Part shown: piece by piece, positions 663 through 2,497 of the stretch
How positions within the stretch are numbered: the first letter of the stretch is position 1
Layout of the letters: each line of letters starts with the position of its first letter
Assembly: GCF_024298765.1 (NCBI RefSeq)
Contig: NZ_CP101210.1
DNA from: Escherichia coli
GTDB lineage: Bacteria > Pseudomonadota > Gammaproteobacteria > Enterobacterales > Enterobacteriaceae
Strand: one strand, 5' to 3'
Length of the DNA stretch: 64,000 nucleotides
The notes under the pieces: model-generated
The model's database searches: none
Told to the model about the DNA's origin: nothing
The model's input: the letters and a program-made list of their open reading frames with translations, nothing else
Position numbers and translations under genes: made by a program

Positions 663-2234
663 ATGAATGTGGAAAAATTTGACTGGACAGAAGAGTTACA
701 TCAGACCATGGTGAAGAGCCTGGTTACATCATTCGGGCTGGATTTTCTGTTGCTAAATGATCGTAAGGGTGGTGATGTTGACACTATCCATAATGTGCGT
801 AATGGCATTTATGCCACGGAGGCTGAGCGACAGCGGTATGAAGGTCGTGGCGAATATGATTCTCATCATTACCACAGCCATGAGAACTATATCGCGACGA
901 ACCGGGAAGGAAAGCGTGCGCATCAGGCAGGGACTCTTACTGATGCATATACAGGCGAGGTGTTTGCTTCTGACGACAAAAAAAATCTGGATCATATTAT
1001 TTCCGCTAAAGAAATTCATGATGATCCGGGGAGAATTCTTGCTGAACGGGATGGTGCAGAACTGGCAAATGACGCTTCAAATCTGGCATTCACTCATGAG
1101 TCGCTCAATAAATCAAAGAAAGCAGACTCAATGGATGCGTTTATTTGCACGCTGCAGAAAAACAGAGAAGATACGTTAAGGCAGATAGCAGAGCTTGAAT
1201 CTCAGGCAACGCTGACAGAAAAGGAAAAGAAACGTCTGATAAGTCTGAGAAAAAAAGCTGATGCAGATACTGAGCGTATGGAAAGGGCTGATAAATATGC
1301 CCGGGAAAAATATGAGGCCACGATTAATCAGAGCTATTACCTGAGTAGTAAGTTTGCTACTGCTGTCGCCAGTGCTTCGCTTAATTCCGGTTTTCGTATG
1401 GGGACGCGACAGATGTTGGGGCTTATTCTTGCCGAGATCTGGTTCGAACTGAGGGAACGAATCCCGCATATTATCAGGCAGCAACGGAACTCATTCAGCG
1501 CCGGCAAATGCCTGTCCGAAATAACGTCAGCATTACGTGCCTGCCAGGAACGAGTACAGGAAAAATTCAGTTCTTTTTTAATTGCCTTTAAAGATGGTGT
1601 CATCGGAGGGATACTGTCAGGTATTACCACAACGCTGTTAAATATATTCCTGACAACGGAAAGAATGATTGTCCGGCTTATCAGGGAAATGTGGAACAAT
1701 CTCGTTCAGGCCTTTAAAGTCCTGGTATTTAATCCGGAGGGATTATCGCCGGGGCAGTTAGCCAAAGCGGTCACTAAACTGATAGCAGCAGGTGTGGCTG
1801 TTGCCGGAGGGGTGATGATAAATGAGGCGATGGCGCAGATCCTTATTTTCCCATTTGGTTCAGAGCTTGCTGCCTTTTGTGGTGCGCTGACGACAGGTAT
1901 TCTCGGGCTGGTGATGAATTATTATCTCGAATATAGCGAGGTTATGCAGCGGGTATGGGCATTTCTGGACAAATTTAAGGACAAATTCCAGCGGTCACTG
2001 GAATACTTTCAGGCAGTCAATGCTGAACTTGATCGCTATCTTGTGGAACTTACTGCACTGGAATTTTCTGTTGATGCTGCCGAGTTAAATCATTTTTCAC
2101 TTCATCTGGATAGCGTAAACAGTGAGATAGAGCGCGGACTTCTGCTGAGAGAAGAAGTCCGCCGACGAGGGATTGCGTTGCCGTTTGAGTCAGGAAATGT
2201 GGCTTCTGTTCGTGACTGGTTAAATAAGCGATGA
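663..2234 (+). CDS. Hypothetical protein: N-terminal HNH-like (His-Me finger) signature, central coiled-coil, C-terminal hydrophobic helical hairpin
   Basis: 523-aa ORF; motif DHIIS...NDASNL...HESLNKSK resembles the HNH core (DH...N...N.K) without zinc-binding cysteines; Lys/Glu-rich heptad-like stretch; ~40-aa hydrophobic hairpin (AAGVAVAGGVMINEAMAQILIFPFGSELAAFCGALTTGILGLVM). Confidence 0.5.
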   Translation: MNVEKFDWTEELHQTMVKSLVTSFGLDFLLLNDRKGGDVDTIHNVRNGIYATEAERQRYEGRGEYDSHHYHSHENYIATNREGKRAHQAGTLTDAYTGEVFASDDKKNLDHIISAKEIHDDPGRILAERDGAELANDASNLAFTHESLNKSKKADSMDAFICTLQKNREDTLRQIAELESQATLTEKEKKRLISLRKKADADTERMERADKYAREKYEATINQSYYLSSKFATAVASASLNSGFRMGTRQMLGLILAEIWFELRERIPHIIRQQRNSFSAGKCLSEITSALRACQERVQEKFSSFLIAFKDGVIGGILSGITTTLLNIFLTTERMIVRLIREMWNNLVQAFKVLVFNPEGLSPGQLAKAVTKLIAAGVAVAGGVMINEAMAQILIFPFGSELAAFCGALTTGILGLVMNYYLEYSEVMQRVWAFLDKFKDKFQRSLEYFQAVNAELDRYLVELTALEFSVDAAELNHFSLHLDSVNSEIERGLLLREEVRRRGIALPFESGNVASVRDWLNKR

Positions 2235-2497
2235 AATTACACCCTCCATTTCCCTGTAACCAGTGTGGGGCCTGTTGTCGTCATGTCAACAGGGCGGGTG
2301 AAACGCAATGTCTGGATCGTGGTGACGGTATTTGCCGTTACTATCAGACTGATTCTCATTTGTGTGCAATTTATGATAAACGCCCACAGATTTGCCGGGT
2401 TGAAGACCAGTATTTACTGAATTATCAGTCTCAGTACAGCTGGCAGGAGTTTATTGCATTAAACCAGGCCGCATGCCTTATTCTGAATAAACTGTAA
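2231..2497 (+). CDS. Small Cys-rich protein, YkgJ/UPF0153-like putative Zn/Fe-S binding domain (CxxCxxCC)
   Basis: 88-aa ORF with CNQCGACC motif plus further Cys; start overlaps upstream stop (ATGA), suggesting translational coupling. Confidence 0.5.
   Translation: MKLHPPFPCNQCGACCRHVNRAGETQCLDRGDGICRYYQTDSHLCAIYDKRPQICRVEDQYLLNYQSQYSWQEFIALNQAACLILNKL

Follow-up and report, generated by a model that had tools for sequence, protein, structure and literature searches.

The question raised by this locus is whether a short open reading frame (ORF), the start codon of which overlaps the stop codon of a 523-amino-acid (aa) gene, is a gene in its own right and, if so, what its product works with. 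The locus lies near the beginning of a 64,000-nucleotide (nt) stretch of Escherichia coli contig NZ_CP101210.1 (assembly GCF_024298765.1), which we call the window; coordinates given with no locus label are window positions. The comparisons reported here indicate that the ORF, which encodes an 88-aa cysteine-rich protein, is a conserved gene, and its product is probably a metal-dependent accessory subunit of a WYL-regulated, Dionysus-related anti-phage membrane module formed by two neighbouring gene products. Throughout, A denotes the DinC-like gene, B the 523-aa-type gene, C the 88-aa cysteine-cluster gene and D the TerB gene. The features on which the argument depends are as follows.

1..616, + strand: 3' part of gene A, encoding a 359-aa DinC-like membrane protein (PADLOC model PDC-M09A, 3.5e-22)
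663..2234, + strand: gene B, encoding a 523-aa protein with an HNH-fold head, a coiled coil and a DinA-like membrane module (PDC-M40B, 1.3e-42)
663..1157, + strand: HNH-like (beta-beta-alpha-Me) head of B, residues ~1-165
1335..2042, + strand: glycine-rich hydrophobic membrane module of B, residues ~225-460, in common with DinA (hhalign, conserved blocks)
2231..2234, + strand: ATGA, the start codon of C overlapping the stop codon of B (sequence)
2231..2497, + strand: gene C, encoding an 88-aa soluble eight-cysteine protein of the CxxCxxCC/YkgJ type (14231-14497 of locus L001; 4282-4548 of locus L181)
2255..2278, + strand: CNQCGACC motif of C, with C9, C12, C15 and C16 (alignments of homologues)

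The 88-aa ORF is a conserved gene

An earlier note on this DNA had described the ATG of the 88-aa ORF as overlapping the upstream stop codon, and the sequence bears this out: window positions 2221-2240 read taaataagcgATGAaattac, with the ATG of C overlapping the TGA of B by 4 nt. The product begins MKLHPPFPCNQCGACCRH and has nine cysteines in total, CNQCGACC being residues 9-16. The note had also pointed to further cysteines beyond this motif; these are present, and four of them (C35, C45, C55 and C82, all downstream of the motif) proved to be conserved throughout the family. In an alignment of 29 homologues, all eight cysteines (C9, C12, C15, C16, C35, C45, C55 and C82) are invariant, and in an alignment of 64 homologues seven are invariant and C9 is at least 90% conserved. 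The motifs LDRGDGxC and RPxxCR are likewise conserved among homologues, and across phyla the mean column identity is 39% (64-homologue alignment). C is predicted to be soluble, with no hydrophobic segment and a net charge of about +1, and an AlphaFold2 model built from 64 sequences has a predicted local distance difference test score (pLDDT) of 95.3.

Homologues retrieved by protein search are 83-100 aa long, with 97% identity in E. coli, 68% in Shewanella and about 50% in Acinetobacter. A genome scan with C found 101 relatives, and 80 loci were kept for analysis, from Gammaproteobacteria, Campylobacterota, Firmicutes, Bacteroidota, Synergistota and Desulfovibrio. When 1.84 billion cluster representatives were searched with a profile, 2,221 matched with E<=1e-3 and 878 reached E<=1e-10. 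Relative to the Shewanella orthologue, the nonsynonymous and synonymous divergences (dN and dS) of C are 0.22 and 1.84; relative to Citrobacter, dN is 0.19 and dS is saturated. These comparisons indicate that C is a real gene, under purifying selection and widely conserved.

C belongs to a short subfamily of CxxCxxCC proteins

The earlier note had taken C for a YkgJ-type protein, and this assignment holds, on the motif and on the company C keeps among its homologues more than on the match of the window protein itself. PF03692 (CxxCxxCC) is the sole Pfam match of the window protein and is weak (E 0.0015, 19.6 bits); it is precomputed on most homologues of C, where it is flagged 'weak' in the locus tables. 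UniProt names the relatives of C in the AlphaFold database (AFDB) 'YkgJ family' or 'zinc/iron-chelating domain', and the NCBI annotation pipeline PGAP annotates the Y38H allele of C as WP_000766272.1, 'YkgJ family cysteine cluster protein', with the identical 4-nt overlap. NCBIfam gave YcgN matches below threshold (21 bits against a cut-off of 150), and a Foldseek search against AFDB50 returned matches solely within the same subfamily.

The N-terminal motif and the further cysteines are common to C and to the CxxCxxCC/YkgJ/UPF0153 superfamily (PF03692, 'putative zinc- or iron-chelating domain'), of which YcgN, YeiW and the N-terminal domain of the flagellin methylase FliB are named relatives. 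In contrast to the superfamily at large, the proteins of the C subfamily are short, have their own LDRGDGxC and RPxxCR motifs and appear to be dedicated to defence operons. We place C in a distinct short subfamily of the CxxCxxCC superfamily, the members of which presumably bind a metal (Zn or Fe-S).

C is the last gene of a WYL-A-B-C operon

Upstream of C, RefSeq records list a 298-aa 'helix-turn-helix regulator', a 359-aa hypothetical protein (A) and the 523-aa B, separated by spacers of 48 and 46 nt. The 298-aa regulator is a WYL-domain protein, as it matches the PADLOC WYL model (2.6e-22) and its Shewanella and Acinetobacter orthologues have Pfam WYL matches. Gene A begins 464 nt before the window (L001 11537-12616), and its product combines a hydrophobic helix at the N terminus with a coiled coil and a glycine zipper, ASTGTxIxxLSGxAAxNATxAxxGGGSLAxGG; Pfam gave no family match for A, and some RefSeq records name it 'chemotaxis protein'. 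The head of B has an invariant D110-H111 pair, N140 and N149 and no zinc-binding cysteines. The catalytic His and the Asn/Asn(His) motif expected of an HNH nuclease stand on a beta-beta-alpha fold, and nuclease activity is predicted. Nothing significant was retrieved by Pfam for full-length B, and its RefSeq name, 'ATP--cob(I)alamin adenosyltransferase', found no support in this analysis.

The adjacent genes A and B both match PADLOC candidate models (PDC-M09A and PDC-M40B), and no PADLOC model matches C; the PDC-M40 and PDC-M09 entries of PADLOC-DB v2.0.0 are two-gene candidate definitions that do not include it. Shewanella carries the same WYL-A-B-C cassette, with 46-48 nt spacers and the ATGA overlap as in E. 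coli, adjoining DarTG and a type I restriction-modification (R-M) system. In Acinetobacter the order is WYL-B' (504 aa, PDC-M09B)-D (273 aa)-A-C. Of 5,426 complete E. coli genomes, 373 (about 7%) contain 80% or more of this WYL-A-B-C stretch, in every case on the chromosome. Two E. coli alleles compared with each other gave dN/dS values of 0.09 (B), 0.29 (A) and 0.48 (WYL gene). C is the fourth and last gene of the E. coli operon WYL-A-B-C.

The operon is related to Dionysus

Dionysus is a defence system consisting of DinA (a 'MAEBL' region plus a transmembrane segment), DinB (TerB-like) and DinC (alpha-pore-forming-toxin-like), all three of which are needed to protect Pseudomonas aeruginosa from phiKZ-like jumbo phages (bioRxiv 10.1101/2025.09.30.679545). 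Foci of DinA and DinC appear at the site of the early phage infection vesicle, AlphaFold3 predicts DinC to bind the C terminus of DinA, and Dionysus-expressing cells were not killed during infection (bioRxiv 10.1101/2025.09.30.679545).

We compared the protein sequences in Table S1 of that work with the A, B and D families. DinA is 44% identical to the 504-aa Acinetobacter protein (6e-100). DinC is 43% identical to the Acinetobacter A protein (4e-59), matches the hidden Markov model (HMM) of the A family at 1.6e-103 and retrieves by BLASTP both the E. coli A (Ec_359, 3e-10) and the Shewanella A (Sh_357, 4e-21). DinB matches the D family (3e-9), and D is itself a TerB domain, with PF05099 on 15 of 19 members at E<=0.1 and on 5 at E<=1e-3. 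The Acinetobacter relatives match both PDC-M09A and PDC-M09B. Because DinA, DinC and DinB match the Acinetobacter, A and D families, these similarities identify the PADLOC candidate PDC-M09 as Dionysus.

A direct BLASTP comparison of DinA with the E. coli B (Ec_523) was not significant. At the level of profiles, B proteins of the PDC-M40B and PDC-M09B types are homologous over their C-terminal ~380 residues (hhalign 99.3%, E 4e-20), a region made up of a coiled coil and glycine-rich membrane segments, and their N-terminal heads differ. PDC-M09 and PDC-M40 thus appear as variants of one family, with A and the C-terminal module of B in common. The D/TerB HMM found no match in the E. coli and Shewanella cassettes, and TerB is present in relatives.

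On this evidence the E. coli operon is a relative of Dionysus in which an HNH domain replaces the DinA head and TerB is absent. A DinC homologue (A), the C-terminal module of DinA (in B) and a WYL gene upstream are common to both. The head of DinA is 'MAEBL-like', whereas that of the E. coli B has an HNH fold, and the gene order is B-D-A-C in Dionysus and A-B-C with no TerB (DinB) gene in E. coli. Protection from jumbo phages by way of the early infection vesicle is reported for the P. aeruginosa system only. The earlier note, which dealt with C and the 523-aa protein, had missed what appears to be a four-gene, WYL-regulated operon related to Dionysus. Literature searches on PDC-M09 and PDC-M40, on the RefSeq accessions of the four proteins and on CxxCxxCC/YkgJ biochemistry retrieved nothing relevant.

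A C homologue lies in the Dionysus fragment of P. aeruginosa

In the published gene table, DinC is directly followed by a 70-aa zinc-ribbon ORF (bioRxiv 10.1101/2025.09.30.679545). We found the exact DinC sequence in three P. aeruginosa loci, where the order is WYL (334 aa), DinA (557 aa), DinB (211 aa), DinC (340 aa), a 98-aa CxxCxxCC ORF and the 70-aa ORF. The two small ORFs lie as follows in one of these loci, L182.

L182 7078-7374: 98-aa CxxCxxCC ORF (C-family HMM, 1.4e-45)
L182 7447-7659: 70-aa zinc-ribbon ORF (CPxCG...CPxC)

The site of the Dionysus reverse cloning primer BN4579 (7770-7787, no mismatch) lies beyond both small ORFs; the C homologue was therefore part of the validated fragment, and the authors neither annotated nor mutated it. 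The forward cloning primer matched none of the three P. aeruginosa loci. The idea that the 70-aa zinc-ribbon ORF replaces C in P. aeruginosa was rejected, as both genes are present; the metagenome locus L159 has a related 67-aa zinc-ribbon ORF (290-493) ahead of its A gene. In Pseudomonas (L182-L184) and Acinetobacter (L006-L010), the cassette precedes the same mobile-element genes (DUF932, YqaJ, Gp3-like and RadC), which points to a conserved cargo position in an integrative element.

C accompanies the A-B pair in shuffled gene orders

ORFs were called in all loci, and family HMMs were built by iteration. Among the 80 genome loci selected by C alone, 50 have more than 3 kb on both sides, and in 45 of these 50 both A and a B-type gene are present, on the same strand; contig ends truncate most of the others. 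Gammaproteobacteria have the genes in the order A-B-C, Firmicutes and Bacteroidota in the order B-C-(D)-A, and Acinetobacter, Neisseria and Moraxella in the order B-D-A-C; C-D-B-A is seen in Clostridia, and C-A-B in Helicobacter and Brevibacillus. The adjacency of C to A and B thus persists through this shuffling in at least five phyla.

A second set of 80 metagenome loci was selected through HNH-type B. C was found in 68 of them, with one further C cut by a contig end, so that it is present in 69 of the 75 informative HNH-type loci. The junction from HNH-type B to C could be read in 109 cases: the genes overlap by 4 nt in 64, by 1 nt in 18 and by other lengths in 10, and are separated by a gap of 0-10 nt in 14 and by a wider one in 3. 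The tight coupling to the 523-aa gene that the earlier note had seen in a single sequence is therefore a conserved trait.

Scans of viral contigs yielded 9 loci with A and 1 locus with B, too few for statistics, and A(+B) loci with no C exist among them. The protein search with the A family reached close gammaproteobacterial relatives only and gives no unbiased estimate of the frequency of C.

Several loci depart from the usual arrangement. In three loci (L024 662-8252; L155 and L178, Acinetobacter-like), an A-B pair of the DinA type and an A-B pair of the HNH type followed by C stand in tandem behind one WYL gene, so that a single C gene follows two A-B pairs. Four metagenome loci (L145, L163, L164 and L165), situated between purE-like and leuA-like genes, have an HNH-type B and no C; the 'A' of this clade is ~480-530 aa long and lacks the glycine-zipper core. 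In L160 and L176, A and B are normal and C is absent.

C occurs in fusions and in other defence clusters

In one lineage, C (7.5e-43) is fused to a TerB-like D domain (2.8e-24) in a single protein (P0078, 231 aa; L185 6001-6696); genes for a DinA-type B (2.9e-109) and an A (8.1e-105) precede it, with an overlap of 4 nt. By the Rosetta-stone argument, this fusion suggests that C and the TerB subunit act side by side. In four further cases C is fused to a ~145-aa domain containing GKSGLVLTxDSVCVK (L053 7998-8699, L065 212-913, P0082 and P0142) and in another to a ~115-aa domain (P0168). Pfam gave no match at all for either domain, and 'PH-like' and 'GIY-YIG-like' labels assigned to the fused domains by eye were dropped, being unsupported by Pfam.

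Of the C-selected loci with no A or B, three of five are other defence-type clusters. Two of these (L027 4572-8249 and L032 4473-8252) consist of LeoBC- and LeoA-like dynamin-type proteins (Eleos; 3e-18 and 5e-39) with C at the end, and in the third (L046 7581-9936) C lies between a TerB protein and a membrane protein together with a BnzB-like protein (1.8e-18). The dynamin-like, BnzB-like and TerB genes of Eleos (LeoA/LeoBC), Bunzi (BnzA/B) and Shango are absent from the E. coli operon, and we found C in none of the published definitions of these three systems. The C-type protein looks like a module common to several membrane-associated defence systems. A distant member of the C family lies in another setting (L087 7231-8591), between an XRE-type helix-turn-helix gene and a radical S-adenosylmethionine (SAM)-like gene with a CNLKCKHCYN motif.

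The earlier note had proposed C as the partner of the 523-aa protein. Partnership as such is supported by the comparative genomics, but the partner appears to be the A-B module and not the HNH protein alone, because C is also found with non-HNH partners of the DinA type, with a DinC-like neighbour, fused to TerB and in Eleos- and Bunzi-like systems.

A proposed role for C and the alternatives

By analogy with the BrxR/CapW class, the WYL protein would repress the operon until a damage or infection signal arrives. A and B would form a membrane complex, as is predicted for DinC and DinA; in E. coli this complex would carry the predicted nuclease head, and A would contribute a component related to pore-forming toxins. 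Termination-reinitiation would tie the synthesis of C to that of B, and C, presumably holding Zn or an Fe-S cluster, would dock on the cytosolic face of the complex, where, with or in place of TerB, it may sense or gate the firing of the pore-former and nuclease head. C is very probably a functional component of the defence module. That its role lies in sensing or regulation rather than in assembly or inhibition can be put forward only tentatively, and we consider it unlikely that C is a metal or redox infection sensor common to Dionysus-like, Eleos and Bunzi-like systems, with a centre that responds to a phage-induced membrane change and licenses the complex.

Several points weigh against C as an accessory subunit. 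The loci were picked by similarity and are not phylogenetically independent, L101-L110 being near-identical E. coli copies. Six informative HNH-type loci (L145, L160, L163-165 and L176) have no C, so it is not absolutely required in every lineage, and no compensating cysteine-rich insertion was found in the A or B of these six. The Pfam match of the single window sequence is weak (E 0.0015), and structure and literature searches found no solved structure or biochemical paper for any CxxCxxCC/YkgJ member. The translation of C, its metal binding and its contact with A or B are predictions. The Dionysus authors describe a three-gene system and did not test C (bioRxiv 10.1101/2025.09.30.679545), and the P. 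aeruginosa locus has a terminator-like hairpin between dinC and its C homologue, which makes the operon membership of C in that species uncertain.

Among the alternatives, one is that the 88-aa ORF is an untranslated chance frame. PGAP leaves the window allele unannotated in NZ_CP033635 and in most RefSeq records with the same allele (the locus-tag numbering skips one value at this position), and no obvious Shine-Dalgarno sequence precedes the ATG in the window sequence. The absence of a Shine-Dalgarno sequence is, however, expected under termination-reinitiation coupling, and PGAP does annotate an allele that differs by one residue. With conservation across phyla, dN far below dS and a pLDDT of 95.3, a chance frame is scarcely credible. 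C could also be real and still be a passenger of the mobile island, a generic Fe-S or Zn protein with no relation to A and B. CxxCxxCC proteins do occur in many unrelated contexts, the distant homologue beside the radical-SAM-like gene being one, and the hairpin in P. aeruginosa separates C from dinC. A passenger would hardly have kept its place beside A and B through the order shuffling in at least five phyla, or its start-stop overlaps, or have been fused to TerB, and we disfavour this explanation as very unlikely.

Two further alternatives grant C a function within the operon and assign it a different one. As an antitoxin- or immunity-like protein, C would inhibit the HNH head or the A-B pore complex until infection removed or inactivated it, for example through oxidation or metal loss. 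C is small and tightly coupled to a putative nuclease and membrane toxin, it is present in nearly all informative HNH-type loci (69 of 75), and a labile metal centre would be a plausible switch. Yet C also accompanies DinA-type partners lacking an HNH head as well as Eleos- and Bunzi-like systems, it is strongly conserved (39% mean column identity), unlike typical fast-evolving antitoxins, intact A+B loci with no C exist (L160 and L176), and Dionysus-expressing cells are not killed during infection; inhibition is in our judgement improbable. A comparably improbable alternative is that C assists assembly or maturation as a metallochaperone or cofactor carrier, needed for the folding, insertion or metallation of A or B but no part of the working complex. 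Zinc-binding cysteines are missing from the HNH head of B, and C offers eight conserved cysteines and would be made at the same ribosome as B. HNH active sites, however, bind Mg, Mn or Zn directly and need no carrier, C is also found beside partners lacking the HNH head, and the covalent fusion of C to TerB favours a stable subunit over a transient helper. The reading that we prefer remains that of C as an accessory subunit of the A-B membrane module.

Island context in E. coli

The operon sits in a chromosomal island at tRNA-Phe, with the following features downstream of C.

2637-2834, + strand: small hydrophobic ORF between C and the phosphoethanolamine transferase gene
2887-4560: phosphoethanolamine transferase gene
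4704-5723, - strand: tetratricopeptide repeat (TPR) protein
5788-6425: insertion sequence IS1 fragments
14744-15958: integrase
16105-16180: tRNA-Phe

No intrinsic terminator was detected directly after C, and the first terminator-like hairpin past it (2848-2867) follows the small hydrophobic ORF. This ORF is annotated as a hypothetical protein of 65 aa in one record and 55 aa in another, and it showed no conservation in Shewanella. The island also holds raffinose/sucrose-type sugar genes and, upstream of the window (L001 1-12000), a type I R-M system, a DEAD/DEAH helicase and an AAA ATPase pair; the tRNA-Phe island is a mixed metabolic and defence island.

Significance

The comparisons join PDC-M09, PDC-M40 and Dionysus into what appears to be one family, with an HNH-armed variant in E. 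coli, the components of which are misnamed in current records and the C gene of which is often unannotated. C has been overlooked both by annotation pipelines and by the experimental definition of Dionysus: the published three-gene system carries a conserved, unannotated fourth gene, together with a fifth, zinc-ribbon ORF, in the clone that was tested. Because of these extra genes, the 'minimal system' and the mechanism of Dionysus may need revisiting. A PF03692 subfamily for which our searches found no function gains a probable context in anti-phage immunity at membranes, and if C should prove to be a sensor, it would be an essential, overlooked fourth component of Dionysus and would give the PF03692 domain its first function.

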